Assembly (NCBI GenBank): GCA_016699205.1
Contig: CP064964.1
Span: 480,001-512,000 of the forward strand
Reading direction: 5' to 3'
Origin: Candidatus Saccharimonadota bacterium
Lineage (GTDB): Bacteria > Patescibacteriota > Patescibacteriia > 2-12-FULL-60-25
Length of the DNA stretch: 32,000 nt
Shown: positions 1,805-29,027 of the stretch, piece by piece
How the letters are laid out: every line of letters begins with the position of its first letter
Position numbering within the stretch: the first letter of the stretch is position 1
Notes under the pieces: generated by a model
The model's input: only the letters and a program-made list of their open reading frames with translations
What the model was told of the DNA's origin: nothing
The model's database searches: none
Made by a program: the position numbers and the translations under genes

Positions 1805-1891
1805 TGGTGGGTGGGGAAGGATTCGAACCTTCGAAGGCGCAAGGCCAGCAGATTTACAGTCTGCCCCCGTTGACCGCTTGGGTACCCACCC
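1805..1891 (-). tRNA. tRNA-Tyr (anticodon GTA), long variable arm, CCA encoded
   Basis: Reverse complement is GGGTGGGTACCCAAGCGGTCAACGGGGGCAGACTGTAAATCTGCTGGCCTTGCGCCTTCGAAGGTTCGAATCCTTCCCCACCCACCA. Acceptor stem GGGTGGG/CCCACCC, anticodon loop CTGTAAA, T-loop GGTTCGAATCC, and a type II variable arm. Confidence 0.9.
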
Positions 1892-1976: not shown

Positions 1977-2052
1977 TGGAGCCACAGACCGGGATTGAAC
2001 CGGTGACCTTGTCCTTACCATGGACACGCTCTACCAACTGAGCTACTGCGGC
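1977..2052 (-). tRNA. tRNA-Thr (anticodon GGT), discriminator U73, CCA encoded
   Basis: Reverse complement is GCCGCAGTAGCTCAGTTGGTAGAGCGTGTCCATGGTAAGGACAAGGTCACCGGTTCAATCCCGGTCTGTGGCTCCA. It folds as a clean cloverleaf with anticodon loop ATGGTAA. Confidence 0.9.
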
Positions 2053-6471: not shown

Positions 6472-7022
6472 ACGGTCATGATTTCTTTTTCTTTATCGGC
6501 GGTTAGCGCATCGATTTTGGCGTTCCACTCGGCCACCATCTTATCCAGCTTCTCGAGCTCGCGCGTGCGCTCGTCCTGCGAGATGACTTTTTCTTTTTCA
6601 TCGGCCTGAATAGCGGTCTTGATCTTTTCACGAATGTTACGAATCGTGATCTTGGCTTGCTCCTCGCGCTGATTGACGAGCTTCACCATGTTCTTGCGAT
6701 TCTCTTCCGTCATCGGAGGCATGACGAGGCGGATGGTTGTTCCGGCCGTGTTTGGCTGCATGCCGATGTTGGCATCGATCAACGCCTTCTCAATATCTTT
6801 CACGATGGACTTGTCCCATGGCTCGATCTGGAGCGTCTTGTTGTCAGGAATCGTAATAGAAGCGTTGGACTTGAGATCCATGCTTTGGCCGTAGACTTCT
6901 ACGCGGATACCTTCTACCAAGGCTGCGCTCGCGCGACCGGTGCGCATGCCGTGAAGTTCTTTCTGATAATGCTCGAGAGCGGCCTGGAATTCCGCTTTGT
7001 GTTCATCGATTCGATTGGGCAT
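6468..7022 (-). CDS. frr: Ribosome recycling factor
   Basis: 184-aa ORF with RTGRASAALVEGIRVEVYGQ and an IRNIRE-type C-terminal helix. There is a 4-nt ATGA overlap with glyQS. Confidence 0.9.
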   Translation of the reverse strand: MPNRIDEHKAEFQAALEHYQKELHGMRTGRASAALVEGIRVEVYGQSMDLKSNASITIPDNKTLQIEPWDKSIVKDIEKALIDANIGMQPNTAGTTIRLVMPPMTEENRKNMVKLVNQREEQAKITIRNIREKIKTAIQADEKEKVISQDERTRELEKLDKMVAEWNAKIDALTADKEKEIMTV

Positions 7023-7094: not shown

Positions 7095-8180
7095 CTAGCT
7101 CTTTGGAGGCAATGTGCCGAGGTAAATCGTGGCTGCGGCAGCGGTGGAAGAAGGATCGTAGAGGATGATGGAAGCGCCGCGGGAGGTTGGAAGCTTCTTG
7201 GGTGTCCAGGTCTGTCCGCCATCACCGCTCCAGATGACGGCTTTATCGGTGGCGTAGACGAGCTCACGCGAGTCTTTTGGATTGACGGCGAAGGCCTTCA
7301 TGTCGACTGTGCCTGCCGGCGTTGGAAGCTTGAGCGCGGTCCAGGTCGTGCCGCCGTCATTAGACTGAAGGATGCCGTACTTGGAAACCGTGTAGACACG
7401 ATTAGCGACGGACGGATCAGGCAAGACGATGTTGGCGCGGTTGGCGCTGTCGAATTCTTGAAGCTCTTTGCGGATCTGCGTCCAGGTTGCGCCTGCGTCC
7501 GTGGTCTTCATGATGCCGTAGCGATCGGTGGCGGCGTAGACAATGCGTGAGTCGCGCGGGTCCATGGCGATCTGGTTGATCTTGTATCCATCAACACGGT
7601 TCGCGACACGCCAGGTGGCGCCGCCATTTTCCGATTTCACGATATCGCCATCGCTTGTACCTGCGTACAAAACATTTGAGTTAAACCAATCGACGACAAG
7701 CGAGGTGAACTTGATGCTGCGCGGATCAAAGTAGACAGCCGACCAATCGCGCGAGCAGTTGGTGGTCTTGAATACCTGGTTTTCACGCGTGGCGTAAATC
7801 GTGCACTTGTCTTTTGGATCAACGGCGACCGCTGGAACACGGCCGCTCGAGAGCCCTTGAGCCGGCTCCCATGATTCTCCGCCGTCGAGAGAATAGATGA
7901 CGCCGTTTTGTTCTGTACCCGCATAAACTGCCTTCACATCCTGCGGATCAATCGCGAGCGTTGCGATACCAACGTTCGCAATGCTCCCCTGCTTGGCTCC
8001 GACATTGAGCGTCTTCAACTGCGACCAAGCGACGCCTTTGTCCTTGCTGCGAAAAATACCGCCGTCAGGACCGGCTGCAGGCTGGGAACTACCACAACCC
8101 TGACCCATAAGCGCAAGCGCAAGAATCGGTGCAGCAACGAGAAGCGTGTAGCGTGAGGCGTGAGGCGTACGAAGGTTCAT
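7095..8180 (-). CDS. Exported BNR/Asp-box repeat beta-propeller protein, probable lipoprotein
   Basis: Signal-like N-terminus ending LALMGQGC. Six SxDxGxTW-type Asp-boxes are present: SKDKGVAW, SLDGGESW, SENGGATW, TTDAGATW, SNDGGTTW and SGDGGQTW. Confidence 0.75.
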   Translation of the reverse strand: MNLRTPHASRYTLLVAAPILALALMGQGCGSSQPAAGPDGGIFRSKDKGVAWSQLKTLNVGAKQGSIANVGIATLAIDPQDVKAVYAGTEQNGVIYSLDGGESWEPAQGLSSGRVPAVAVDPKDKCTIYATRENQVFKTTNCSRDWSAVYFDPRSIKFTSLVVDWFNSNVLYAGTSDGDIVKSENGGATWRVANRVDGYKINQIAMDPRDSRIVYAATDRYGIMKTTDAGATWTQIRKELQEFDSANRANIVLPDPSVANRVYTVSKYGILQSNDGGTTWTALKLPTPAGTVDMKAFAVNPKDSRELVYATDKAVIWSGDGGQTWTPKKLPTSRGASIILYDPSSTAAAATIYLGTLPPKS

Positions 8181-9088
8181 AGATATCGAGGGTGGAGGAA
8201 ATCGGGTAAAGGACGTTTGCCTATAATATACGGCTCAATGGCCGACCATTCAAGCGCGAGATGCGGCGAGAGCGAGGAACCGATCATATTCCAGGCCCGC
8301 GCGAGCCCTCGACCGATGCGGGAAAAGGCTACGGGATCGGCTGCAATGCGCTCCGGCATGACCTGCATCAGCTCGACGAGAATCGCGCGCCAGGCGAGCT
8401 CGGCGTCTTCTTCTGATTGAAGGCGCTTGTATAAGCGTTCAATTTCTCCGAGTTCTTTTCCAAGCGGCTGGGTTGCCCAGATATCGATCAGAGCAGCCGC
8501 ATCGCGCTTGCGCGACTCCCATGCTTCCGGGTCGGCTTGGAGGCGGCTGGCGATTCCGGGACAGCCGCGGCTCGCGCGAATGAACTCGGCTGAAAATTTT
8601 CCGGAAAGTTCTGCCAATGGAACAGGAGAGAATGCGATCGATGCAAGACGGGAACGTAACGTTGCCGGTAAACGGTCGGGCTGTTCGGTTACAAAGATAA
8701 AAACGGAATCGCCGGAAGGCTCTTCTACGGACTTGAGAAGAGCGTTGGCAGATTCTTCATTGAGACGATCCGCTTCCGGAATGAGCGCGACTTTGAAACC
8801 GCCGCGTGCGGAGGTCATGGTCATACGCGAGACAAACTCACGTGTTTGTTTGATCTTTAATTCTTTACTCCCCTCTTCCCTTTCAAGCGCGATGAAATCC
8901 GGATGGGCGGGCAAGTGATCGATGTTGTCGACGTGTAAAATTTTACTCGCAAAGGAACGAGCGGCGAGACGCTTTCCGAGACCATCAGCGCCATGAAATA
9001 GATAGGCGTGACCGGGGTGATCGGCCAGGGATTCAAGCATGCGGATGATCGGGGCATTTCCGAGGAAATGGTCAAAGGGAATCGGCAT
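8177..9088 (-). CDS. holB: DNA polymerase III subunit delta'
   Basis: 303-aa ORF with AAA+ clamp-loader features: HAYLFHGADGLGKRLAARSFA, an LNEESANALLKSVEEP sensor region and an SRL (SRC-like) motif. There is a 4-nt overlap with the downstream gene. Confidence 0.8.
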   Translation of the reverse strand: MPIPFDHFLGNAPIIRMLESLADHPGHAYLFHGADGLGKRLAARSFASKILHVDNIDHLPAHPDFIALEREEGSKELKIKQTREFVSRMTMTSARGGFKVALIPEADRLNEESANALLKSVEEPSGDSVFIFVTEQPDRLPATLRSRLASIAFSPVPLAELSGKFSAEFIRASRGCPGIASRLQADPEAWESRKRDAAALIDIWATQPLGKELGEIERLYKRLQSEEDAELAWRAILVELMQVMPERIAADPVAFSRIGRGLARAWNMIGSSLSPHLALEWSAIEPYIIGKRPLPDFLHPRYL

Positions 9089-9112
9089 GGCGGAATCCTA
9101 GCACAAACGAAA

Positions 9113-9142
9113 GCGGCCCTCCCCAGAGTTGGGAAGGGCCGC
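9113..9142 (-). terminator. GC-rich terminator hairpin of island gene 9159..10628 (module CTGATC-hairpin-TTTCGTTT)
   Basis: The minus-strand RNA GCGGCCCUUCCC-AACUCU-GGGGAGGGCCGC forms 12 bp (one G.U) and is followed by UUUCGUUU. On the plus strand the same position would be a C.A mismatch, which supports minus-strand function. Confidence 0.7.
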
Positions 9143-9158
9143 GATCAGGAGTGATACT

Positions 9159-10628
9159 TCAGATCTCGAGACCCAGAAGGACCTGGACGAGACCGTCGGC
9201 TGCTGTTGCTGTTGCCGGTCGGAACGAGGCACCGCCCGCACCACGAATGGTGAAGACGATCGCTGGATCGTTGACGTCGGGCGATGAGGCGATCCTTCCA
9301 TCCACGACGCGCAAGCGCCCGTGAATGGCGAGTTCGAGGTAGGCGCCGTGAAAGGAGTGGGCACTTTGCATGGTCGGCCGGAAGCGATCCGAGCCCAGGT
9401 AGCCAAAGCCGATCGAGAGCTCCTGAATCACGTAGTACGAGAGTCCTCCGTGATACCAGATACGCGCCGGCGTGGCATATGGGCTGAAGTCGGGTCCGTC
9501 GTAGGTGACGCCGACGCCGCCCTCCATGTAGAAACCGCGATAGAGCGGAAGCAGTACCGTCGCTTCGAAACCGATACCGGCCGGCGTCGAGGCGAGTCCG
9601 CCGCGCATCTGCGCGAGCGTCGGGTGGAGCGGCGTGAAGCCGACCCAACCGAGCAGCGAGAGCCGCAAGCGCGGGCGCCACCCGTCACCAAAGAGCGTAG
9701 GGTGCTCGTCGGGACGGCGCGTGGGCATCGGAGATGAATCCGACGACGTACGCGAGGACGAGCCGACGGGCTCGATGCCCGAGCGGGCATCGGCTCCTGG
9801 GCACTCGTAATCGACACGTCGCATTCCCTCGTAGACCCAGCGGCCTTCATGGCCAGGCGCGATCTCCGGATGGAATGTCGGGGCGCTCGAGGTGTACGTG
9901 ACGCGTTCGGCGCCGAGCTCGAGGCAGCGTAGACGCGCGGACTGCCGCTCCAAGCTCGCGAGCATCTGGCTGACCAGATCCTCCTGCAAGAAGTAACGCT
10001 CGCGCGTTCGCTCGTCCAAAAGACGGATGGCCTCGATGCGCTCATCGCGCTCCGACGTGATGCGACGATCGAGACCCTCGTCTGCTTCCGTGCGAGCGTC
10101 ATACTCGTCGCGGATCATCCGAGCGAGTTCGGCACCTTCTGGCGTTCGGCAGATGCCGAGTCGTAGCGTGCCGTCCGGCATGAGGATCACGGACTCCGCG
10201 TCCCAGATGCCACGCTGACGCGCGCAGATGCCACGGGCTCGTGCCTGTGCTTCACGCTCGCGCTCCTCGGCTGTGGGCCGAGGAGCACGAGGTTCGGGGT
10301 CTGCGTCGGCCGTTGCGGCTGCGACGACCGGAGCTGCCGGAGCTTCGCAGCCGACGGCCGCACGGCCGCAAGCGTCGCAGAACGCCGCCATGATCTCGGT
10401 GGTGCGCGGCTCGAGTCCGTGACACTCCTCGACGTTGGCAATGCACTGCGGGATGGTTGCATCGGTGACGCAGAGCTCGTACCGACGCGCGCATGCGTCC
10501 ATGCATGCGGCGAGCGGATCGAGCGACTCGAGAAGTCCCGAGTCGGTGCCGGCGTCGTCCTGGGCGGAAACCCCGGAGACGACGGCGAGCTGGCAAATCA
10601 CGAGAAACAGGAACTGGGTGAAACGCAT
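9159..10628 (-). CDS. Exported Cys-rich/coiled-coil protein with OMP-like C-terminal beta-barrel region (island paralog 1)
   Basis: 489-aa GC3-rich ORF preceded by a strong SD (AAGGAGG). Signal peptide MRFTQFLFLVICQLAVVSGVSAQ, a 9-Cys N-terminal region and a charged helical middle. The C-terminal ~170 aa have alternating hydrophobic strands (GWRPRLRLSLLGWVGF, IGFEATVLLPLYRGFYMEGGVGVTY, HSFHGAYLELAIHGRLRV). Confidence 0.7.
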   Translation of the reverse strand: MRFTQFLFLVICQLAVVSGVSAQDDAGTDSGLLESLDPLAACMDACARRYELCVTDATIPQCIANVEECHGLEPRTTEIMAAFCDACGRAAVGCEAPAAPVVAAATADADPEPRAPRPTAEEREREAQARARGICARQRGIWDAESVILMPDGTLRLGICRTPEGAELARMIRDEYDARTEADEGLDRRITSERDERIEAIRLLDERTRERYFLQEDLVSQMLASLERQSARLRCLELGAERVTYTSSAPTFHPEIAPGHEGRWVYEGMRRVDYECPGADARSGIEPVGSSSRTSSDSSPMPTRRPDEHPTLFGDGWRPRLRLSLLGWVGFTPLHPTLAQMRGGLASTPAGIGFEATVLLPLYRGFYMEGGVGVTYDGPDFSPYATPARIWYHGGLSYYVIQELSIGFGYLGSDRFRPTMQSAHSFHGAYLELAIHGRLRVVDGRIASSPDVNDPAIVFTIRGAGGASFRPATATAADGLVQVLLGLEI

Positions 10629-10758
10629 GTCGCCTCCTTGGCTCTGTGCAAGGTCCGACTTCCGGACCCTGAGGCCGCCTGATCGATCGCCACCGGAGGA
10701 GGTAGACGAGGATCAGGCGAACTCAAGGCCGGAAGGATTACCCGGGTGGTAACGGCTT

Positions 10759-10787
10759 TAATTACGATAAAATAATGGTTTTGTCAA
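10759..10787 (-). promoter_or_regulatory. Sigma70-like promoter, TTGACAAAA -35 box, for gene 9159..10628
   Basis: Minus strand reads TTGACA (10787-10782), a 17-nt AT-rich spacer, then TAATTA. It sits in a short AT-rich patch inside GC-rich DNA, ~125 nt upstream of the ATG. Confidence 0.5.
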
Positions 10788-10816
10788 CCCCACCGCAGAG
10801 CTTAGCGAAAACGAAA

Positions 10817-10846
10817 GCGCCCACCCCAGTAAGTCAGGGTGGGCGC
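10817..10846 (-). terminator. GC-rich terminator hairpin of the 190-aa lipoprotein gene (same module as 9113..9142)
   Basis: GCGCCCACCC/GGGTGGGCGC forms a 10-bp stem, flanked by CTGATC on the 5' side and TTTCGTTTTCG on the 3' side of the minus strand. Confidence 0.7.
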
Positions 10847-10875
10847 GATCAGAGATGCCCTTGCGGGCGAAGGAG

Positions 10876-11448
10876 CTAGAGGAGCGAGGAGCAGAGCGGC
10901 AGACGCAGGACGTACCCGCCACCAGGCGAGACGGCCGTCGTCACGATGCTCGAGACGTCCTCGGGGGCGCCGGTCGCGTCGGGGTCGTACCAGACCTCGA
11001 TGCGGACGTTGCGCGACATGGCGGTCGAACCCGCCGGGATGGCCGCGTAGTCGCCGGAGGAGCAGCGGAACCCGAGATCGACCTCGGCGCCGACCCACTC
11101 GGGACGGACGCGCTGGTCGATGTCCGAGCCCGGCGTGTAGACCGTGCCGGTGACCGGCAGGCTGTACGCCGTCGGATCCCAGCCGCTGGCGCAGGAGCCG
11201 AGCGGGCCGTTGGCGGCGTCGAGCACCGTCACGCGGAAGCGCGTCGGGCTCATGCCGTCGGCGCCGCAGTGGCGCCAGGGGGTCGGAGGCGACGTGGTCG
11301 TGGCCGCGTCGGCGAGGACCGTCGGGCCGCTGTCACCCACGGGGGTGACGCCGGCATCCGTGCCGTACGTGGGGCCGTCGGGGCTGGTGTTGCAGCCGGA
11401 GACGAGCGCGACGAGGACGAACGAGACGATGGTGAGGGTGTTCTTCAT
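10876..11448 (-). CDS. Small lipoprotein of unknown function (island)
   Basis: The start was moved to ATG 11448, giving MKNTLTIVSFVLVALVSGC with a lipobox (LVSGC). 190 aa, GC3-rich, with a Thr/Pro-rich linker followed by a probable beta-rich domain. Confidence 0.65.
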   Translation of the reverse strand: MKNTLTIVSFVLVALVSGCNTSPDGPTYGTDAGVTPVGDSGPTVLADAATTTSPPTPWRHCGADGMSPTRFRVTVLDAANGPLGSCASGWDPTAYSLPVTGTVYTPGSDIDQRVRPEWVGAEVDLGFRCSSGDYAAIPAGSTAMSRNVRIEVWYDPDATGAPEDVSSIVTTAVSPGGGYVLRLPLCSSLL

Positions 11449-11640
11449 GATCTTCTGGATCCCTTCTTCATGCCCGATGCGTCGGAGCCGCGTTGATTGT
11501 TTTCGGTTTTGAACTGGAACGTTTGGTTTGAACAAATCTCGCGATTTGTACTCCCCTCGAAGGCCATCAGGTTGATGATGAACTTTGAGGGAAGGAGCAC
11601 CGGTAGAAACCAGTGCTCACTTTCCAGAGTGTGCTTGCCC

Positions 11641-12852
<1,212 letters not shown>

Positions 12853-12994
12853 CTGGACCTCAGCCTTTCTCCCGCTCACGCGAGAGCGAGAATCGAGCAG
12901 TTCTGGTAAGTCACATGACCCACCATCTGGATCTATTAGCCGATACTGGATTCCCGTCTTCACGGGAATGACAGCTACTAAAGCCGGATGGTGT

Positions 12995-13034
12995 GGGGGC
13001 CCGCTCGATCTACAGATGTAGAGAGCGGGCCCCC
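12995..13034 (-). terminator. Long GC hairpin downstream of gene 13045..14505
   Basis: GGGGGCCCGCTC/GAGCGGGCCCCC forms a 12-bp stem enclosing an inner tctaca/tgtaga stem. There is no clear U tract, so it may be a partial terminator or a processing site. Confidence 0.5.
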
Positions 13035-13044
13035 GAGCAGTTGT

Positions 13045-14505
13045 TCAGAACGAGACGCCGCCGCCCAGTGAGAGGACGTAGCCGACTCCATCGACACCGA
13101 CGAAGTGATCGACGTTGGGACGTCGGACCTCGGTGTGGGTGTAGTCGAGGCCGGCCGTGCCCTCGATGTGCAGCCACGGAAGCGGGTTCACCCGAAGGCG
13201 AACTTCCCCACCGAGCTGGAACACGGGCCAGGTGTGCAGGCTGCGACCGATCTGGCCGCCGGGGTTGAACACGGCGGAGGCCGCGAGACCGACGTCGAGG
13301 GCGAACATCTCGTCGAAGCGGAAGGTTGCGCCTGCCGATCCGCCAAAGATGCCCTCGTCACCGATCGTGCCGTCCGGGTTGAACTGGCCGATTCGATCGA
13401 GGAGGTTGCCCGCCCCGACGTATCCGCGCAGGAAGAACCCGAAGTGCTCGACCGGAAGGGCCTCGATCTCGGCGTACACCACTCCGTGAGGAGCGAGGAT
13501 GCCGGCCGGAGCCGTGATGCCGAGACCATGGAAGGCCAGGCCGAGGTGGAAGCGGAGATGCCAGCCATTGCCGGAACCGACGCTGTCACGCAGGTAGTCC
13601 TCGCGAGCTGCGAGACATGCCTGCATCACCTGGTCGCGCGTCATCGTCGGATAGTCGTCCGGGTCGATGTCGCAGATGACCGAGAGGCCACCTTCGAGAG
13701 CGCCTAGCCGCGTCAGGATCGAGGTGATCTGTCCACGCATGGTGTTCAGATCGCCGCGGAACTCGTCGAGGTCACGACGGAACTCGTCGAAGCTGTTGCA
13801 GAAGCCGGCCCATGCCGCATCCCGGACCACGCCTTCCGGCAGGGTCGGGCTGCAGTAGTAGGTGAGGAACGCGTAGTTGCGTCCCACATCCTCAAGGTCG
13901 TCTTCTGCTTCCTCGCGAGCGATCGGAGGAGCTGCCGGATTGGAGTAGTCGACACAGTGAATGATCACCAGCGTGACTCCGGGCTCGGCGCGCCGTCGGC
14001 TCTCGCCTTCGGAACGCGCACGATTCCAGGGAACCTCCACGGGCTCCGTGCCGTCCTCGCAGATGACCTGTCGATTCCACCCGCGACCTTCCATGTGATG
14101 GGGGCCACGAGCTTCCACGACGAGTCGGCGACGAGTACGCGGAGCGCTGGGCGCTTCCGGATCACGGGGGCAGACCTCGACCTCGCGGCACATGGTGAAG
14201 GCCTCGCGGACTTCGCCCATATTGGTGAAGTGCGGCCGGCCGCCCGTGCCGTTCAGGCGATCGTAGAGCGTCTCGTAGAACGTCATGACAGTTCGATCTG
14301 CATCGACACAGGTGTTGGTGAGGGCCGCTGCATCGTCGAGGCTGATCGTGCCGTCCTCGTACAGCTCGTTGAAGTGCTGGAGACAGGGCGGGGACGCTCC
14401 CTCGGGGGGAACGATACGATCCTGAGCGTCCGCGATGGACGCGAGGCCGAGGGTGAGCACGAAGCCGATCGCGAACGAGACGAGGAACAGGTTGGTGGTC
14501 TTCAT
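13045..14505 (-). CDS. Exported Cys-containing/coiled-coil protein with OMP-like C-terminal beta-barrel region (island paralog 2)
   Basis: 486-aa GC3-rich ORF with SD GGAGAGGAG and signal peptide MKTTNLFLVSFAIGFVLTLGLASIADAQ. A helical segment (FDEFRRDLDEFRGDLNTMRGQITSILTRL) precedes C-terminal alternating strands (GWHLRFHLGLAFHGLG, HTWPVFQLGGEVRLRV). The protein ends ...GYVLSLGGGVSF with a terminal Phe, like an OMP beta-signal. Confidence 0.7.
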   Translation of the reverse strand: MKTTNLFLVSFAIGFVLTLGLASIADAQDRIVPPEGASPPCLQHFNELYEDGTISLDDAAALTNTCVDADRTVMTFYETLYDRLNGTGGRPHFTNMGEVREAFTMCREVEVCPRDPEAPSAPRTRRRLVVEARGPHHMEGRGWNRQVICEDGTEPVEVPWNRARSEGESRRRAEPGVTLVIIHCVDYSNPAAPPIAREEAEDDLEDVGRNYAFLTYYCSPTLPEGVVRDAAWAGFCNSFDEFRRDLDEFRGDLNTMRGQITSILTRLGALEGGLSVICDIDPDDYPTMTRDQVMQACLAAREDYLRDSVGSGNGWHLRFHLGLAFHGLGITAPAGILAPHGVVYAEIEALPVEHFGFFLRGYVGAGNLLDRIGQFNPDGTIGDEGIFGGSAGATFRFDEMFALDVGLAASAVFNPGGQIGRSLHTWPVFQLGGEVRLRVNPLPWLHIEGTAGLDYTHTEVRRPNVDHFVGVDGVGYVLSLGGGVSF

Positions 14506-14624
14506 GGGAACTCCTCTCCGAACCTTCCGGCCCGGTGGTCTGTGACCCCGGGTGGAGGTCGGGTTGATCGTTCTGAATCTGAAACTTGGAAATAGCGAGA
14601 ACCTGTCATTATTGACCGGTCCTT

Positions 14625-14654
14625 GAGCCGTCCCGCCAGGAGACGGAACGGCTC
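14625..14654 (-). promoter_or_regulatory. 13-bp stem-loop in the long 5' UTR of gene 13045..14505
   Basis: Minus-strand GAGCCGUUCCGUC-UCCU-GGCGGGACGGCUC forms 13 bp including two G.U pairs. No U tract follows. Confidence 0.5.
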
Positions 14655-14697
14655 AAATACCTGTCTTAGGCACGATTAGCCATTGAAAGAACGTATT

Positions 14698-14726
14698 ACA
14701 ATATCACTTTTTAAGCTTTTTGTCAA
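14698..14726 (-). promoter_or_regulatory. Sigma70-like promoter (proximal copy), TTGACAAAAAGC...TGaTATTGT
   Basis: TTGACA (14726-14721), a 17-nt spacer ending in TGa, then -10 TATTGT (14703-14698). Confidence 0.6.
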
Positions 14727-14821
14727 GGCTTATAAACAATGACTTTGTCGAAGGTTTAACAGCCTCAGACCTTAGCCTTTTTCTCGTAAAATCGGGTATT
14801 TCCAGCGCTAATTAACAACAT

Positions 14822-14850
14822 AATATAACACGTTTTTGGCTTTTTGTCAA
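14822..14850 (-). promoter_or_regulatory. Sigma70-like promoter (distal copy), TTGACAAAAAGC...TGtTATATT
   Basis: TTGACA (14850-14845), a 17-nt spacer ending in TGt, then -10 TATATT (14827-14822). About 22 of 29 nt are identical to the proximal copy. Confidence 0.6.
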
Positions 14851-14897
14851 TAAAACATTCATTAAACGCAAGTTAGCCAAAATCGCTAAAAACAGAA

Positions 14898-14932
14898 CAC
14901 GACCCCTCCGCCAGCGTGGCAAAGGGGTCGTG
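14898..14932 (-). terminator. Rho-independent terminator of gene 14945..15505
   Basis: cacgacccct/aggggtcgtg forms a 10-bp stem followed by TTCTGTTTTT on the minus strand. Confidence 0.7.
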
Positions 14933-14944
14933 CAGAGATAGTTG

Positions 14945-15505
14945 CTAGTCGCCGCGGCCGACTAGCCTGAGATGGGACGGAGTCGCCCTCATCCGCTTGG
15001 TGGGACGGGTGTTGCGAACGGCTTCCCCGAGGGAAGCGGGCTTGGCCGGCTTATGGTCGCGGATCCAGCCCTCGGCAGAGGGATGGCGCTGCGCGACGAA
15101 GAGAACGATCTCCTCGATGCGCTCGAGCGCCTCCAGATGAGCCTCTTCCTGCTTGCTGCCCGCGGCGCAGGCATCGACATTGCGCTTGAGACGCATCATC
15201 AGACGGATGAGACCGCCCTCGGGGCAGTTGTGGAAGTCGACGATGTGGAGCGCGTTGGCGAGGAGTGCCTCGCGGACGCGTGTGTCGGCGAGCTTGATGT
15301 CGGGCCGGAAGCCCTTGAGAACCTCCTCGGGGAACCATCGGCTCAGGCAGACGATGGCCCAGACGAAGTCGCCGCACTCCTCGAGCGGGAGATGCTCGAC
15401 GAAGGGGGCCGAAACGCCGTTGACGACGTTGATTTCCGGCATCACGAGGTCGCGCAGCGCGGGCGAAATTACCTTGGTCCAAAAGGAACGATCCCGATTT
15501 TCCAT
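14945..15505 (-). CDS. Cytoplasmic orphan protein (island), unknown function
   Basis: The start was moved to ATG 15505 (MENRDRSFW), which has SD GAGGAG and lies downstream of the predicted TSS. 186 aa, relatively GC-rich, no signal peptide, basic C-terminal tail (RNTRPTKRMRATPSHLRLVGRGD). I recognise no motif. Confidence 0.55.
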   Translation of the reverse strand: MENRDRSFWTKVISPALRDLVMPEINVVNGVSAPFVEHLPLEECGDFVWAIVCLSRWFPEEVLKGFRPDIKLADTRVREALLANALHIVDFHNCPEGGLIRLMMRLKRNVDACAAGSKQEEAHLEALERIEEIVLFVAQRHPSAEGWIRDHKPAKPASLGEAVRNTRPTKRMRATPSHLRLVGRGD

Positions 15506-15531
15506 GATTCTCCTCTTCTCGGGGACCAAAA

Positions 15532-15560
15532 AATATATCAAAATATTGCGATTTTGTCAA
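15532..15560 (-). promoter_or_regulatory. Sigma70 consensus-like promoter for gene 14945..15505
   Basis: TTGACA (15560-15555), a 17-nt spacer ending in TGa, then TATATT (15537-15532). It lies immediately after the terminator of the upstream gene. Confidence 0.65.
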
Positions 15561-15569
15561 TGGATACAA

Positions 15570-15590
15570 AAGAACCCCGGAGGGGTTCTT
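15570..15590 (-). terminator. Rho-independent terminator of the E/K-rich gene
   Basis: AAGAACCCC-TCC-GGGGTTCTT followed by TTGT on the minus strand. It overlaps the stop codon by 2 nt. Confidence 0.65.
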
Positions 15591-17418
15591 AGGCGGCTTT
15601 CTTAACTAACTTTGGACGTGCTTTCTTTGGACTAACTTCCTCGATACCCATGATTTTGTCGGCTTCTGCTATGCGGGCCTTGGCCTCTTGGTCGCCATCC
15701 ATGTCGTAGAAGGCGCGGTCGAGGACATAAGCGGTGGCGAGATCGCGCGTGCCAAAGACCTCTTGCAAGGCGTCGAGCTGATCCTGTTCCATCCCCTGCA
15801 TGCGAGCGGCAATGCTGTTCCAGAGTTCGGCGGCACGCGGGTATTCTTTGCGAACCGTGTTGATGTCTGCCGCGCGTTCCTTTTGGAACTCGAGCGTGAC
15901 GCTTTCTTCTTCCTTCACATCCTTAGGCATCGAGGGCGATTCTGCCTCCGGTTGATAGAGTCGGACCGGCTCGGCACGCGACATGGCGTCGCTGATGCTA
16001 CCGGTACCCATCGAGACTTTGCGGGATGGGACGCGGCTCATCGGACGTTTGGCACGAATCTCTTTTTCATCTTGGATGACACCACCTTCTGCGTTGCGGA
16101 CAACGCCGCTCTTATAGTCTTGATCGATAGCGGCGACTTCCGGATTCTCAGCGATGAACTCGCGATCCGTAGCCTGCTGCGCTGCTTCTTCCACATCGAT
16201 TCTCTGGCGCTTACCTTTGGCCGATAAGCTCTGCATCAAGTCGGGCTTCACACCCATGACTTCACGGTCTACTTCTTCCAGTTTTTTCCCGGACTCGATC
16301 CAACTGTCCAGTAAATCATACGTTGGAACATTGGCGAGCTTCGCCAAACCGCGGCGGATGCGCGTCATGAAACCGCCATTCAATACGAGCTTCTCGTATG
16401 CATCCTCCGGCTCCATGCCCGTAAGATCGCGTAAACGATTGCCGGTTGCGGCGTGCTCGGCTTCCAACTTCTTTAGCTTGGCAAGAGAGCGTTTGCGGGC
16501 TGGGTCCGTCTCTGCAGACGCGCGCTCGGCGCTGACATTGGCTTGGATGCGCTTGCCAGCTTCCGCGCGTTCCTGCTTGGACTGGACTTCCTTTTGGTAT
16601 TTTTCCAAGGCTTCACGGCTGACTTCACGAGCTTTTTGCATGCTCTCGGCTTTCGCCGATGGCTGTTTCAGAAGCTCGGAAGTCTTGGCTTCCGTTTCCT
16701 CGATATCGCGCTTGATGCGCTCGGCCCATTCTTTATCCAGCTCCTCCATCTCCTTGCGAGCGATTTCCTGCTTTTGATTCTCGTTCTCAAGGTCAACCAA
16801 TTCCTTCACCATTTCTTGGCGAGGATTCATGGAGACCGTCTCCTGCTTTTTCGCGCGCTTCTTGGGCTTCTCAACATAACCAAGAACCTCTTCTTCCATC
16901 ATGCGCTTGCTCTCAATATCCTGGAGCTCCGAGACAAGGGCCATGGTGTCAACCTTCTCTGGCTTAGGCTCTGCATCGATCGCATCGGCCATTTTGGAAA
17001 TCGTTTCCTTCACGGATTTACGCTCGTCTTCTTTCAATAAGTCATTGATCACTTTCTCTTGAGCAACTTCACGCGAAACGCGCTCGCGACGTTTGGCGGG
17101 CTCGAGAGCTGCACGGGCATTCTCAAAATCGCTTTTGCCTGTCATTTTCAAAAATTGCTTCTTTTTCTCTTCTTTCAACATGCTTTCTGCAGCCTCATGC
17201 GCTGTAAAAGCCTGCTCTTCATTCATAGCGCCAAGACGCTCGCGTAAAGCCGCTTCCTCCATCTCCTCTTTCATTGCGGAAGAGGTCTCGGCTTGGAATC
17301 GTTCGGCTTTTTGCCCTCGACTCTCTTTTCGTTTTTTGGGAGATTGTTCCGCACCGGGCAAATCTTGCCGGCTTGGCATTTTAGGCACATCTTCAAACTT
17401 CTTCATTTTGCGTGGCAT
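15589..17418 (-). CDS. Glu/Lys-rich, largely helical protein of unknown function
   Basis: 609 aa from ATG 17418 (MPRKMKKFEDV). The GTG at 17442 lies upstream of the predicted -10 (TGTTATACT, 17441-17433). The sequence is low-complexity and charged, with no motif I recognise. Confidence 0.55.
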   Translation of the reverse strand: MPRKMKKFEDVPKMPSRQDLPGAEQSPKKRKESRGQKAERFQAETSSAMKEEMEEAALRERLGAMNEEQAFTAHEAAESMLKEEKKKQFLKMTGKSDFENARAALEPAKRRERVSREVAQEKVINDLLKEDERKSVKETISKMADAIDAEPKPEKVDTMALVSELQDIESKRMMEEEVLGYVEKPKKRAKKQETVSMNPRQEMVKELVDLENENQKQEIARKEMEELDKEWAERIKRDIEETEAKTSELLKQPSAKAESMQKAREVSREALEKYQKEVQSKQERAEAGKRIQANVSAERASAETDPARKRSLAKLKKLEAEHAATGNRLRDLTGMEPEDAYEKLVLNGGFMTRIRRGLAKLANVPTYDLLDSWIESGKKLEEVDREVMGVKPDLMQSLSAKGKRQRIDVEEAAQQATDREFIAENPEVAAIDQDYKSGVVRNAEGGVIQDEKEIRAKRPMSRVPSRKVSMGTGSISDAMSRAEPVRLYQPEAESPSMPKDVKEEESVTLEFQKERAADINTVRKEYPRAAELWNSIAARMQGMEQDQLDALQEVFGTRDLATAYVLDRAFYDMDGDQEAKARIAEADKIMGIEEVSPKKARPKLVKKAA

Positions 17419-17439
17419 AGGAGAATGCCGCCAGTATAA

Positions 17440-17469
17440 CACAAATCCCGCCGATCGGCGGGATTTGTG
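17440..17469 (-). terminator. Rho-independent terminator after rplT
   Basis: Perfect 13-bp inverted repeat cacaaatcccgcc-gatc-ggcgggatttgtg, 12 nt downstream of the rplT stop. Confidence 0.75.
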
Positions 17470-17480
17470 TGGATGATTGC

Positions 17481-18601: not shown

Positions 18602-19024
18602 TGGTGGAGATGCCGGGTATCGCACCCGGGTCCGAACATAAGACCAAGACGTTTCATTCACAAGCTTGGACGACTCATCCCAACGCACGTCGGGTGTCAT
18701 TCCTGCGGCATGGAGCCGACGAGAGCGCAGGAACCAAGTTTCCGGGGCCTGTCGTCATGAGCGGGAAACCGCGCTCGCGACCAAGTTCCCATTTATGACA
18801 GTCGATCTCTACCTCGGGAACAGAGGAAGAGGGACTGGCCGGCCACAGTCGCGGTTAGGCGAGGACCGGAGCGAAGGACGGGGCGCGGAAAGCCGAAGCG
18901 ATCGCGTCCTGAACCTTTGAAATGACGTTGGCAGTTGTCATTGTACCTACGTGGATTACGGACTCGTAGGCGCGTCCGGCTTGCAACGAAATGGAACGAA
19001 CGTCGTCGATGCTGATTCATCCCC
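18602..19024 (-). ncRNA. ssrA: tmRNA (ssrA)
   Basis: The 5' end GGGGATGAATCAGCATCGACG pairs with the 3' end ...GGACCCGGGTGCGATACCCGGCATCTCCACCA. This gives an acceptor stem with a G3.U70 wobble, a T-arm and CCA. An in-frame tag reading frame runs GCC(18932)...TAA(18855), predicting ANVISKVQDAIASAFRAPSFAPVLA. It lies directly next to smpB. Confidence 0.85.
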
Positions 19025-19026
19025 GT

Positions 19027-19467
19027 TTACTCGTCGTAACGACGGGCATGGCGCATACGGTCGCGTTCCTTGATGGAATCCCGCTTGTCATGGGCTTTTT
19101 TCCCACGACCGAGGGCAAACGAGACTTTGATGCGTCGGCGGAGAGGATAGAATGAAATGGGCACAAGTGTCAAGCCTTTTTGCTCCAATTTTTCCGTTAA
19201 CTTGCGCAATTCCTTGGCTGTAACCAGAACCTTGCGATTCCGTTCTATCTCGTAGGTATCCCGGTTGGCCATCTTGGAATAGGGCCGAATTTGGGCTCCG
19301 ACCAGCCATAATTCACCACGGATGAGGCGGATGTAGGCCCCCTCGAGCTTCGCTCCGCCCTCACGGATCGATTTCACCTCCGGACCGCTCAAAACCAGGC
19401 CTCCTTCAAAGGATTCCAGGAACTGATAGTCGTGCCGGGCTTTCCGGTTTTCTGCGTAGGGCTTCAT
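19027..19467 (-). CDS. smpB: SsrA-binding protein SmpB
   Basis: The start was trimmed to ATG 19467, giving MKPYAENRKARHDYQFLESFEGGLVLSGPEVKSIREG... (146 aa), which is canonical SmpB. The longer track ORF runs antisense into the neighbouring gene. Confidence 0.9.
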   Translation of the reverse strand: MKPYAENRKARHDYQFLESFEGGLVLSGPEVKSIREGGAKLEGAYIRLIRGELWLVGAQIRPYSKMANRDTYEIERNRKVLVTAKELRKLTEKLEQKGLTLVPISFYPLRRRIKVSFALGRGKKAHDKRDSIKERDRMRHARRYDE

Positions 19468-19503
19468 GGGTCTTTGGCCGTACGGTATAACACGTATAAC
19501 GAT

Positions 19504-22442: not shown

Positions 22443-23060
22443 ATGACCATTAAAGATCAGCCGATTCGCAGCTTGCTCGCCTCGTGGCGTGCGCTTGTCG
22501 GACTCGGTATCGCCGGAGCGCTCCTTGCTCTCGCCGTTTCCTTTTTGCAGCCATTGCAATACAACTCGACTGTACGTTTATTGATTACTCAGCCAGGCTC
22601 GGTCAACGTTGATGCGTTTACGGTGTTGAAATCCAATGAGCGCATTGCGCAGAACCTTTCACAATTGCTGCGTACCTCGACCTTTTTTGAAAATATTTTG
22701 GCACAAGCGCAGGGCGTCGATGTTGATTATTTCCCTGCAGCAGAATATGAACGCCGCGCTGCATGGAATCGCGCGATCTCGACCAGCGTCGATACCGGTA
22801 GCGGACTCATGACGGTTAGCGTTTACCATCGCGACGTTGCGCAGGCACGAAGCCTCGTGGTGGCGGCATCCAACGAGATCGCCAAGCAAGCTCCGAATTA
22901 CTTTGGCTCGGCCATCCGCGTGCAGGTGATCGACTCCCCGCTTGATTCTCGCTGGTATGCGCGTCCAAACTTCATGAATAACGCGGTGTACGGATTGTTT
23001 ACGGGAATTATGCTCGGCGTTCTCTGGAGCCTTCTCCGAAAGCCCGAACGAAGCGAGTAA
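22443..23060 (+). CDS. Wzz/chain-length-determinant-like bitopic membrane protein
   Basis: 205 aa with an N-terminal TM (LVGLGIAGALLALAVSFLQPLQYNSTVRLLI) and a C-terminal TM (VYGLFTGIMLGVLWSLL). This topology is typical of small Wzz/YveK-like proteins. Confidence 0.45.
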   Translation: MTIKDQPIRSLLASWRALVGLGIAGALLALAVSFLQPLQYNSTVRLLITQPGSVNVDAFTVLKSNERIAQNLSQLLRTSTFFENILAQAQGVDVDYFPAAEYERRAAWNRAISTSVDTGSGLMTVSVYHRDVAQARSLVVAASNEIAKQAPNYFGSAIRVQVIDSPLDSRWYARPNFMNNAVYGLFTGIMLGVLWSLLRKPERSE

Positions 23061-28722: not shown

Positions 28723-28992
28723 TCAGAGTATGGAAGCGATGTCCCCCACGGAGGGCGTGGGAGTCTGCTTCATGGTGGGCATGACAGCGATGGCGGCGAT
28801 GGCGGCGGCCTCGGGTAGCGTCTTCAGGTCGTGAGCGCTCTCGAGACGGATGAAGTCGGAACCTCGGTAGCCGAGGTGGTCGTTCATCTTGTTCTGCAGA
28901 GATGCGAGCTGCGTCTCCGGAAGGGTAAGCCCCCTCGGAAGATCCATGAAGAGCCTGTATGCCTGTTCGCCGTACGACATCGTGTCACCCAT
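28723..28992 (-). CDS. Small GC3-rich orphan protein (satellite cassette)
   Basis: 89-aa ORF (MGDTMSYGEQAYRLF...AAAIAAIAVMPTMKQ...). Its codon third positions are visibly G/C-rich compared with its neighbours. It has its own TTGACAAAA box and terminator, and coding status is plausible but unproven. Confidence 0.45.
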   Translation of the reverse strand: MGDTMSYGEQAYRLFMDLPRGLTLPETQLASLQNKMNDHLGYRGSDFIRLESAHDLKTLPEAAAIAAIAVMPTMKQTPTPSVGDIASIL

Positions 28993-28998
28993 ATCCGC

Positions 28999-29027
28999 AC
29001 CTCATCACAATAATAATGTTTTGTCAA
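28999..29027 (-). promoter_or_regulatory. TTGACAAAA -35 box with a weak -10 (TGaTGAGGT), upstream of the 89-aa ORF
   Basis: TTGACA is at 29027-29022, with TG at spacer positions 15-16 as in the other copies. The -10 is poor. The geometry would place the TSS at or near the ATG (28992), giving a leaderless mRNA. Confidence 0.4.

Follow-up and report, generated by a model that had tools for sequence, protein, structure and literature searches.

Several described systems resemble, each in part, the locus analyzed here. Small outer-membrane barrels of the OmpX/Ail type belong to the clan of PF13505, together with the transmembrane domain of OmpA, OmpW, and NspA; substrates of the β-barrel assembly machinery (BAM) end in an aromatic residue. 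MopE-type lipoproteins with PF11617 repeats are common in Myxococcota and their relatives. Classical genomic islands have sharp compositional edges, deviant codon usage, accessory-type orphan genes, and promoters of their own, and are usually AT-richer than the host. In Escherichia coli, ompA is expressed from a strong promoter through a long 5' untranslated region with a stabilizing stem-loop, and ends in a strong terminator. Translation poor in Shine-Dalgarno (SD) sites, with few SD-led genes, is a regime of the Bacteroidota type. Bacteria also have hypervariable, recombining surface-antigen loci, and recombination has been linked to high G+C content at third codon positions, GC3 (Lassalle et al. 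2015, PMC4450053). In this study, we examined a GC-rich block of five genes, P1 to P5, at positions 9089-15588 of a 32,000-nucleotide window (contig CP064964.1, positions 480,001 to 512,000; unless a relative is named, coordinates are those of the window). Our results favor, with a probability of roughly 0.6, the reading of the block as a surface-gene cluster, old and hypervariable, that has been passed down vertically in a single clade of Candidatus Uhrbacteria, part of the candidate phyla radiation (CPR) or Patescibacteria. It is neither a recent foreign insertion nor an assembly artifact. As had been anticipated, the backbone is that of CPR: a 1,082,254-bp contig from a Candidatus Uhrbacteria bacterium encodes a protein, IPH19_02475, identical to P4. 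Three features are unusual for a surface locus: a compositional island that is inherited and stationary, SD sites restricted to one gene class, and predicted barrels of the outer-membrane protein (OMP) type in a member of CPR.

The compositional contrast is sharp. In windows of 500 nucleotides, G+C content is 0.61-0.71 over 9001-15500 and 0.48-0.59 in the flanks, with a lone AT-rich dip inside the block (0.478 at 14501-15000), and the edges fall at the start side of holB (9088) and at the stop codon of a glutamate- and lysine-rich gene, hereafter the E/K gene (15589). GC3 is 0.745-0.948 in the five island genes, all on the minus strand, against 0.515-0.687 in the other 23 genes of the window, the backbone outlier being rpmI, with 64 codons and a GC3 of 0.815; first and second codon positions of the island genes are likewise elevated. 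Intergenic G+C within the island (0.41-0.60) is similar to that between backbone genes. Thus a preliminary description of this DNA, which had reported a high-GC island of GC3-biased reading frames, AT-rich patches between them, many long antisense open reading frames (ORFs), and no integrase, tRNA junction, or flanking repeat at the edges, was accurate on all these points. The antisense ORFs, which the GC-rich DNA produces in abundance, have been annotated as coding in the database entries of sister strains (554 and 470 amino acids in L001 and L002, 211 in L003, 493 in L013). Because of such spurious wrong-strand calls (L001/L002 4359-7456 on the minus strand, L003 7597-8232, L013 8339-9820 and 11933-12547), the sister annotations lack the genuine P2, P3, and P4. 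Apart from the compositional jump itself, nothing favors a chimeric contig or contamination, that is, a block derived from another organism. Both junctions, which the preliminary description had proposed to check, are spanned in identical form by more than 10 independent assemblies of different samples (JGI, NCBI, ENA, Logan), megabase contigs among them, with blastn identities of 96-99% across each. The exact holB protein recurs on five independent contigs (JGI, NCBI, Logan), two of them of 1.07 and 1.11 Mb, and five of five carry the island; moreover, the block diverges together with the backbone. A chimera is therefore excluded, and we give this explanation next to no credence.

The distribution of the block among relatives argues for great age. 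In L005 (GCA_021413945.1, Ca. Uhrbacteria), where the backbone is 77-87% identical in DNA and 87-99% in protein, island proteins are 48-69% identical, gene order is the same (rplT-E/K-P5-P4-P3-P2-P1-holB), and GC3 is 0.75-0.92 in the island versus 0.55-0.75 in the backbone. In L010-L013, with backbone proteins 36-82% identical, P4-P3-P2-P1 are still joined to holB, and the island is again the richer in G+C (0.58-0.66 vs. 0.46-0.49) and in GC3 (0.62-0.81 vs. about 0.37-0.63). The same four contigs carry a lineage-specific inversion of the stretch between the E/K gene and a Wzz-like gene (near 23060 in the window), through which the latter now adjoins P4, with P5, the E/K gene, and rplT on the far side; one of its breakpoints lies in the P5-P4 intergenic region (14506-14944) and leaves the P4 promoter and leader intact. 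A scan of a genome collection with a holB profile also recovered the block in L014, L015, L016, L017 (Ca. Uhrbacteria SJ877), and L024. Several metagenome-assembled genomes (L014-L016, L019-L021, and L024) are titled "uncultured Gammaproteobacteria bacterium" and have Uhrbacteria-type synteny and proteins; they are probably mislabeled. Upstream of holB in L019 (1-3300) and L020 (1-1075), G+C is 0.63-0.81 against a backbone of about 0.50, and the genes there, though of analogous type, are not detectably homologous to P1-P4. Those of L019 specify a barrel-like protein that is Gly-rich and has a coiled coil, as well as a Cys-rich lipoprotein of another kind, which suggests wholesale turnover at a fixed site. 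L018 and L025 (holB identity 31-45%) have flat G+C and ordinary genes, without the block. The block thus stands at holB in every relative with a holB identity of at least 48% and in several at 43-44%, and is absent in L018 and L025 alone; in every lineage possessing an island, the island adjoins holB, at +0.10 to +0.20 in G+C over backbones of 0.46-0.60. The same GC-rich locus next to holB across such deep divergence indicates that it is old and vertically inherited.

The composition of the island is, furthermore, at equilibrium. Substitutions were polarized among four conspecific strains in window-anchored alignments, with L005 as outgroup for 2:2 sites. At third positions of the island, 62 AT>GC changes fell on 122 AT sites and 66 GC>AT changes on 539 GC sites, which puts the equilibrium GC3 at 0.806 (bootstrap 0.76-0.85), matching the 0.815 of today; for the backbone, the equilibrium lies at 0.557 (0.48-0.62). 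Island GC3 is stationary and shows no amelioration toward the host. Generic high-GC bacteria such as Myxococcus favor CTG, GTG, GGG, and CGG far more than the island does, where Leu is encoded by CTC at 0.66 and CTG at 0.20 (0.38 vs. 0.11 in the backbone), Val by GTC at 0.69 and GTG at 0.21, Gly by GGT at 0.24 and GGG at 0.06, and Arg by CGT at 0.29 and CGG at 0.11. The preferences CTC>>CTG, GTC>>GTG, GGT>>GGG, and CGT>>CGG are common to island and backbone: the codon preferences of the island are the host's own unusual ones, amplified. Among two-fold codons the C- and G-ending shares reach 0.82 and 0.81 in the island, from 0.49, and 0.56 and 0.53 in translation genes; in L013 the ribosomal protein genes are not GC3-rich, although the island of that genome is. 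Amino-acid usage is also skewed, with Lys at 0.7% in the island versus 6.7% in the backbone, Arg at 7.8%, and Cys raised to 3.9%.

These results bear directly on the origin that the preliminary description had proposed, namely, a horizontally acquired secretome module, here taken as a recent gain from a high-GC diderm such as a member of Myxococcota. The GC contrast, the distinct SD and promoter usage, and the diderm-type folds would suit such an event. Against it stand an orthologous island at the same holB locus, with shared synteny and an equally high GC in genomes, sister and distant alike, whose backbone proteins are 36-99% identical (an outcome that the preliminary description had itself named as one that would refute its proposal), a GC3 at equilibrium, host-like codons, expression signals conserved throughout the clade, and the same signature on dispersed genes (below). 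P1, P4, and P5 have no homologues outside the clade and P3 shares there only a repeat, so that the search for foreign relatives also fails to support the proposal. Neither edge carries mobility genes, att repeats, or a tRNA, and the tmRNA gene was rejected as an integration site, since the core genes infC-rpmI-rplT, as well as the E/K gene, lie between it and the island. We thus regard a recent acquisition as very improbable. The locus resembles classical islands in its edges, deviant codon usage, orphan content, and promoters, but departs from them in lacking integrase, tRNA, and repeats, in its deep synteny, vertical inheritance, and stationary composition, and in being GC-richer than its host. 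A compositional island can therefore be old, inherited, and stationary, and deviation in GC or codon usage alone is no evidence of recent transfer.

The island genes also differ from their neighbors in how they appear to be expressed. SD strength was taken as the energy of pairing between the 20 nucleotides upstream of the start and a canonical 16S tail, CACCUCCUUUC, which may not be the host's own. By this measure, all five island genes fall between -8.1 and -11.2 kcal/mol (P1, AAGGAGG, at -11.2; P5, GAGGAG, at -9.4 kcal/mol), and none of the 23 backbone genes, including rplT, rpmI, infC, frr, and tpiA, does better than -5.8. The preliminary description had reported SD sites and TTGACA promoters for P1, P4, and P5 and a backbone without SD sites, all of which the pairing energies and the located -35 and -10 boxes confirm; the two lipoprotein genes, P2 and P3, to which it had ascribed only weak sites, lie within the same -8.1 to -11.2 kcal/mol and have a usable SD. 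The division holds in relatives: island genes of L005, L010, and L013 range from -7 to -11.6 kcal/mol, save P2 of L005 at -5.9, and the housekeeping genes of these genomes have no SD, with the single exception of tpiA in L013 (-7.1). Backbone starts without an SD are pyrimidine-rich before the ATG (...ATCT ATG, ...TTCT ATG, ...TCCT ATG; for example at 7022, 8180, 5032, and 17819), which suggests a different initiation context, kept also in L005. Housekeeping genes without SD beside a small strong-SD subset recall the SD-poor regime of the Bacteroidota type and the loss of the anti-SD in some Parcubacteria (PMC9297842), yet here the SD-led subset consists of GC-rich orphan and surface-protein genes. 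A literature search on Uhrbacteria and Shine-Dalgarno found nothing.

Promoters and terminators (table 1) partition the island into three units, P5, P4-P3-P2, and P1. The P5 promoter and both P4 promoters (TTGACA-17-TATATT at 14850-14822 and TTGACA-17-TATTGT at 14726-14698) are of a near-consensus sigma-70 type and share a 37-nucleotide module (repeat family D4), and the terminators after P1 and P2 are alike in sequence (repeat family D18). Upstream of P1, where an exact TTGACAAAA stands at 10779-10787, the TTGACA is invariant in six lineages and blocks of the leader are conserved, so that P1 mRNA, likewise, apparently has a conserved structured 5' leader. Conservation upstream of P4 is more extensive. 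The -35 and -10 boxes of the proximal promoter are kept in all lineages compared, and the -35 TTGACA, the TG-extended -10, and a hairpin core with arms AGCCGTTCCG (14653-14644) and CGGGACGGCT (14635-14626) do not change between the window and L013. The predicted fold of the leader is much stronger than that of its shuffles (z=-5.25), and the hairpin has a consensus stem of 22 pairs, 5 of them with compensatory changes, under an apical loop that ranges from 8 to about 60 nucleotides between lineages. Conservation of SD sites, promoters, and leader across the clade argues that they function in this host. No family of Rfam 15 matched the P4 leader, the only hit being the SurA sRNA on the opposite strand (27 bits vs. 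a gathering threshold of 100), and no credible Rfam match was obtained for the island leaders as a whole. Sequestration of the SD in cis by CCUCC-like tracts in the P1 and P4 leaders was considered and rejected, the predicted partner of the SD differing in every lineage. By analogy, the design recalls that of ompA: a near-consensus, extended -10 promoter, a P4 leader of about 185 nucleotides with a covariation-supported 22-bp hairpin near its 5' end, and a strong terminator at the end of the unit; however, the P4 leader bears no sequence or Rfam relationship to that of ompA, and its function is predicted by the analogy.

This signature is not confined to the island. Five exact copies of the 9-mer TTGACAAAA lie within the 32 kb; four of them are island promoters and the fifth (29019-29027) precedes an unannotated ORF of 89 amino acids in the 348-nucleotide gap between the genes of a DUF11 protein and a GGDEF protein. 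The product of this ORF is identical on 8 public contigs, where it is called as a gene. In the window all strong-SD genes (6/6) have a GC3 of at least 0.745, and a strong SD is found in 0/22 low-GC3 genes (Fisher p=1.5e-5). A 95%-identical strain, L100, which reaches about 8 kb past the left end of the window, adds two isolated orphans of 198 and 180 amino acids (15003-15599 and 16886-17428), both with strong AAAGGAG SD sites: one has a GC3 of 0.83, an SD of -8.6 kcal/mol, and a TTGACA at -61, and the other a GC3 of 0.77 and an SD of -12.0, among neighbors without SD and with a GC3 of 0.55-0.63. Neither has a Pfam match or any relation to P5, and no kinship was found between P5 and other small GC-rich orphans. 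The homologue of P5 in L011, recognized with an hhalign probability of 92%, still adjoins the E/K gene after the inversion has moved it to about 8 kb from P4-P1, and it retains TTGACA, GGAGAG, and a raised GC3. Thus, the signature follows particular genes rather than chromosomal position, which argues against both a single foreign insertion and recombination-associated GC bias as its sole cause. It also follows that a genome with SD-less housekeeping genes can keep a small SD-led class, making heterogeneity of translation initiation in CPR a testable matter.

As had been proposed, four of the five products are exported: signal peptides (P1 and P4) and lipoboxes (P2 and P3) were identified by eye in the translations. 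The lipobox pattern [LVI][ASTVI][GAS]C is matched by ...VALVSGC in P2 and ...CMGLAAC in P3 and, again by eye, is kept in the orthologues. In P4, a signal peptide and some 300 residues of variable N-terminal domain precede a conserved, predicted eight-stranded barrel (residues 316-485) ending in ...GGGVSF. In the AlphaFold2 (AF2) model the eight strands have a predicted local distance difference test score (pLDDT) of 80-93, and Foldseek places it with Ail (E=2e-7, TMt 0.65), OmpW, OmpX, OmpA, and NspA (probability 1.0, TMt 0.58-0.65 over the clan); its strand amphipathicity is 2.09 versus 1.22+-0.32 in shuffles. P1 combines a signal peptide with a helical region rich in Cys, a helix of about 75 residues, and a predicted eight-stranded barrel at 320-488 (overall pLDDT 69, strands 65-90), with matches to OmpG, Ail, OmpX, OmpA, and NspA that are weaker than those of P4 (TMt 0.50-0.55 for OmpX, NspA, and OmpA). 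For both models the significant Foldseek matches are essentially all outer-membrane barrels, and the helical or Cys-rich N-terminal parts are less confident than the barrels. The resemblance to OmpX/Ail-type proteins thus extends to long amphipathic strands and, in P4, to the aromatic end (...VSF). The differences are that no significant sequence similarity and no PDB sequence match exist, and that the barrel lies C-terminal to a variable domain of some 300 residues instead of being N-terminal or stand-alone. P1 and P4 have 15 and 14 homologues, respectively, all within this clade. Two P4 orthologues appear disrupted: in L005 (10001-11482) the last 35 residues align in another frame, pointing to a frameshift in K8R04_04840, and in L013 (8402-9814) the gene is split into two ORFs, which could reflect assembly errors or pseudogenization.

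P3 combines its lipobox with four Cys-rich stretches assigned to PF11617, a putative metal-binding motif (E=1.5e-19, 70.4 bits vs. a cutoff of 27), as in the MopE-type lipoproteins of Myxococcota; it is set apart by full-length relatives found in this clade alone and by two swappable types of C-terminal domain. Outside the clade only the repeats match, with identities of 26-54% across 20-64% of the protein's length, in organisms that include Myxococcota, Bradymonadia, and Chitinophagaceae. P2 has orthologues in L005, L010, L014, L015, and L017. Neither P2 nor the cytoplasmic P5 matched anything in Pfam, NCBIfam, PDB, PHROGs, or PADLOC, no sequence relative with a solved structure was found for P1, P2, P4, or P5, and an exhaustive scan of 1.84 billion representatives returned 13 relatives of P5, all in the clade. 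A phage, defense-system, or plasmid origin was likewise rejected, the block having no PHROGs, PADLOC, plasmid, or phage matches. The diderm character that the preliminary description had seen in these proteins is therefore real, in P3 by the MopE repeats and in P1 and P4 by predicted fold.

Such protein types raise the possibility of a very old transfer, in which a GC-rich, SD-using diderm donated a surface operon to the ancestor of the clade, where it was retained next to holB and selection or recombination kept its composition. OMP-type barrels and PF11617 repeats are typical of diderms, the phylum is regarded as monoderm (PMC11665869), L018 and L025 have no GC-rich block, and the amino-acid composition, poor in Lys and rich in Arg, is that of high-GC organisms. 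Nonetheless, no donor homologues of P1, P4, or P5 emerge even from the exhaustive scan, and beyond the clade P3 is matched only in its short repeat; the codon preferences are those of the host rather than a generic high-GC pattern, no amelioration has occurred over a very deep divergence, and the signature marks unrelated isolated orphans, which is more than one transfer explains. We consider an ancient transfer possible, though well short of an even chance. As an account of origin alone it is compatible with an old, vertically inherited surface cluster: the barrel and MopE-repeat proteins may ultimately derive from an ancient diderm transfer, for which nothing identifies a donor.

Within the inherited cluster, variation is strongly mosaic. 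Among four strains whose backbone diverges by 1-4% throughout, the nearest neighbor in the island switches by segment, 2:2 partitions change, and divergence jumps to 14-22%. The segment covering P1 of the window is closest to L001 (1.0%) and distant from L006 (14.1%); that covering P2 is closest to L003 (3.7%) and distant from L001 (13.6%). The N-terminal part of P3 is closest to L006 (0.9%) and about 14% from L001 and L003, its C-terminal part is closest to L003 and L006 (0.7%) and 21% from L001, and the N-terminal domain of P4 (13565-14420) cannot be aligned among conspecific strains. The C-terminal domain of P3 exists as two unrelated types, discordant with species relationships, one in the window, L003, and L006 (100% identical) and in the distant L010 (60%), the other in L001, L005, and L013 (39-45%). 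The locus is thus a hot spot for recombination and carries old allelic cassettes, a pattern to be expected of exposed proteins under diversifying or balancing selection. Changes at first and second codon positions amount to 87/1337 in the island and 25/4640 in the backbone, a difference of about 12-fold. Segment mosaicism, domain cassettes shared across species, raised nonsynonymous divergence, and raised GC3 with nonoptimal GC-ending codons all recall the loci described by Lassalle et al. (2015, PMC4450053), but the GC3 excess here is much larger, isolated genes are marked as well, and the equally mosaic E/K gene is not GC-rich.

The last point bears on a further explanation, that GC-biased gene conversion at a recombination hot spot created the composition, SD sites being a secondary adaptation to structured GC-rich mRNA. 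The strong mosaicism and the domain types common to several species would favor it, as would the rise of C- and G-ending codons, including ones not favored in translation genes, and the lesser effect on intergenic G+C, the former as predicted for gene conversion and the latter as reported in earlier work (PMC4450053). However, the E/K protein has no Pfam family and is 39% identical to that of L005, where backbone proteins are 87-99% identical, and its gene shows mosaic distances from 0.012 to 0.107; it is as mosaic and fast-evolving as the island and yet retains a backbone-like GC3 of 0.60, so that G+C does not track recombination regardless of gene identity. Also, GGG and CGG remain rare while GGT and CGT remain common, the signature stays with P5 after its displacement by about 8 kb and marks isolated genes in a backbone context, and an excess of +0.2 to +0.3 in GC3 is far above the bacterial effects reported (PMC4450053). 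We therefore find it quite unlikely that gene conversion accounts for the block.

Returning to the old surface cluster, we propose the following model. P1 and P4 would display variable N-terminal domains of about 300 residues on predicted OmpX/Ail-type eight-stranded membrane barrels, alongside the lipoproteins P2 and P3 and a small cytoplasmic orphan, P5. The pace of change in the island proteins is 5-10 times that of the backbone, and strains and species trade them in pieces through homologous recombination, swaps of whole domains included, as would befit proteins that are exposed at the surface or touch a host and are subject to diversifying selection. The cluster is the largest one in a dispersed class of orphan genes that, unlike housekeeping genes, combine a GC-rich coding sequence with an SD; near-consensus TTGACA(AAA) promoters stand at most unit heads of the class, and strong hairpin terminators close the island units and the 89-amino-acid ORF. 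It is plausible to hypothesize that the GC-rich body, the hairpins at the 5' and 3' ends, the SD, and the strong promoter form a single selected expression design, most likely one for stable, strongly expressed, SD-dependent mRNAs of abundant envelope proteins, and that selection keeps it, possibly helped by recombination-associated GC bias; alternatively, the design may serve as an SD-dependent translational switch. A bolder proposition, which we hold to be unlikely, is that a CPR clade of a monoderm phylum keeps a separately expressed gene class whose core is a hypervariable surface module of OmpX/Ail-type barrels. If so, the barrels may insert in an unrecognized outer layer of the Uhrbacteria cell or enter the outer membrane of a Gram-negative host and mediate episymbiotic attachment, and the SD subset may, under the control of ribosome state or of how much anti-SD is available, switch translation between a free and a host-attached mode of life.

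CPR or Patescibacteria account for much of bacterial diversity; few have been cultured, and a life in attachment to host cells is presumed for them. Outside Saccharibacteria, few of the molecules that mediate this contact have been identified. For one clade of Uhrbacteria the locus provides candidates, which are fixed in position, hypervariable, exchanged between strains, and predicted to be barrel- or lipid-anchored; OMP-type barrels in a supposedly monoderm phylum would also bear on the debate over the envelope architecture of CPR.

Several points weigh against this interpretation. Since the literature treats Patescibacteria as monoderm (PMC11665869; see also PMC8871954), barrels of the OMP type would not be expected here. 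The barrels of P1 and P4 are AlphaFold predictions from alignments of 13 sequences, P4 reaches 18.1 bits against the cutoff of 28.7 for PF13505 (OMP_b-brl), and P1 has no match to that family. P1 and P4 have a common architecture, but comparison of the two gives no significant homology in support of paralogy (BLASTP E=0.037, hhalign E=0.15). How strongly the genes are expressed, how stable their mRNAs are, and whether the products lie at the surface are all matters of inference. The anti-SD has been lost in some Parcubacteria (PMC9297842), and the dispersed class is drawn from about 42 kb and 8 members. The absence of the block in L018 and L025 is a comparison made without a phylogeny and is not read as gain or loss. 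Finally, ordinary optimal-codon selection was rejected as the sole cause of the high GC3, translation genes shifting only slightly, and the depletion of Lys shows that GC pressure acts on amino-acid composition too.

Table 1. Positions, strands, and supporting evidence of the island, its expression signals, and other features of the window
Feature	Position	Strand	Evidence or properties
holB (DNA polymerase III delta')	8177..9088	-	Backbone, conserved anchor gene; PF13177, TIGR00678
GC-rich block, whole	9089..15588	-	Composition; five genes, at least three transcription units
Intrinsic terminator after P1	9113..9142	-	13-bp stem, 10 GC pairs, T-run
P1, exported protein, 489 amino acids	9159..10628	-	Translation, AF2 model, Foldseek
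P1 promoter and structured leader	10629..10787	-	TTGACA 10787-10782, 17-nt spacer, TAATTA; sequence conservation
Intrinsic terminator after P2, end of P4-P3-P2 unit	10817..10846	-	12-bp stem, 9 GC pairs, T-run
P2, lipoprotein, 190 amino acids	10876..11448	-	Translation; lipobox LVSGC; GC3 0.95, block maximum
P3, lipoprotein, 403 amino acids	11641..12852	-	Lipobox GLAAC; four MopE-type Cys-rich repeats, swappable C-terminal domain
P4, exported protein, 486 amino acids	13045..14505	-	AF2, Foldseek, strand amphipathicity
P4 5' leader with conserved RNA hairpin	14506..14692	-	Fold z=-5.25, covariation
Tandem P4 promoters	14698..14850	-	14726-14698 and 14850-14822; 10/12 and 11/12 matches, TG-extended
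Intrinsic terminator after P5	14897..14933	-	17-bp stem, 10 GC pairs, T-run
P5, cytoplasmic orphan, 186 amino acids	14945..15505	-	Monocistronic; GC3 0.82, SD GAGGAG -9.4
P5 promoter	15532..15560	-	TTGACA-17-TATATT, TG-extended; 11/12 matches
E/K gene, 609-617 amino acids	15589..17418 (or 15589-17442)	-	Contrast case; GC3 0.60, SD -4.8
Perfect palindrome, 16+16 nt	17439-17470		ACACAAATCCCGCCGA/TCGGCGGGATTTGTGT; between rplT and E/K gene
tmRNA gene	18602-19024	-	Rfam RF00023, 82.6 bits; between infC and smpB (about 19027-19473); unreported by ARAGORN
tRNA-Tyr(GTA)	1805-1891	-	
tRNA-Thr(GGT)	1977-2052	-	
ORF of 89 amino acids with TTGACAAAA promoter	28723..29027	-	ORF 28723-28992, promoter 29027-29019; GC3 0.79, GAGGTG SD -9.2, terminator hairpin

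Two minor observations concern other parts of the window. The ORF at 818-1921 overlaps the tRNA-Tyr gene, and its true start therefore lies further downstream. The palindrome between rplT and the E/K gene is probably the terminator of the rplT operon or a regulatory hairpin.

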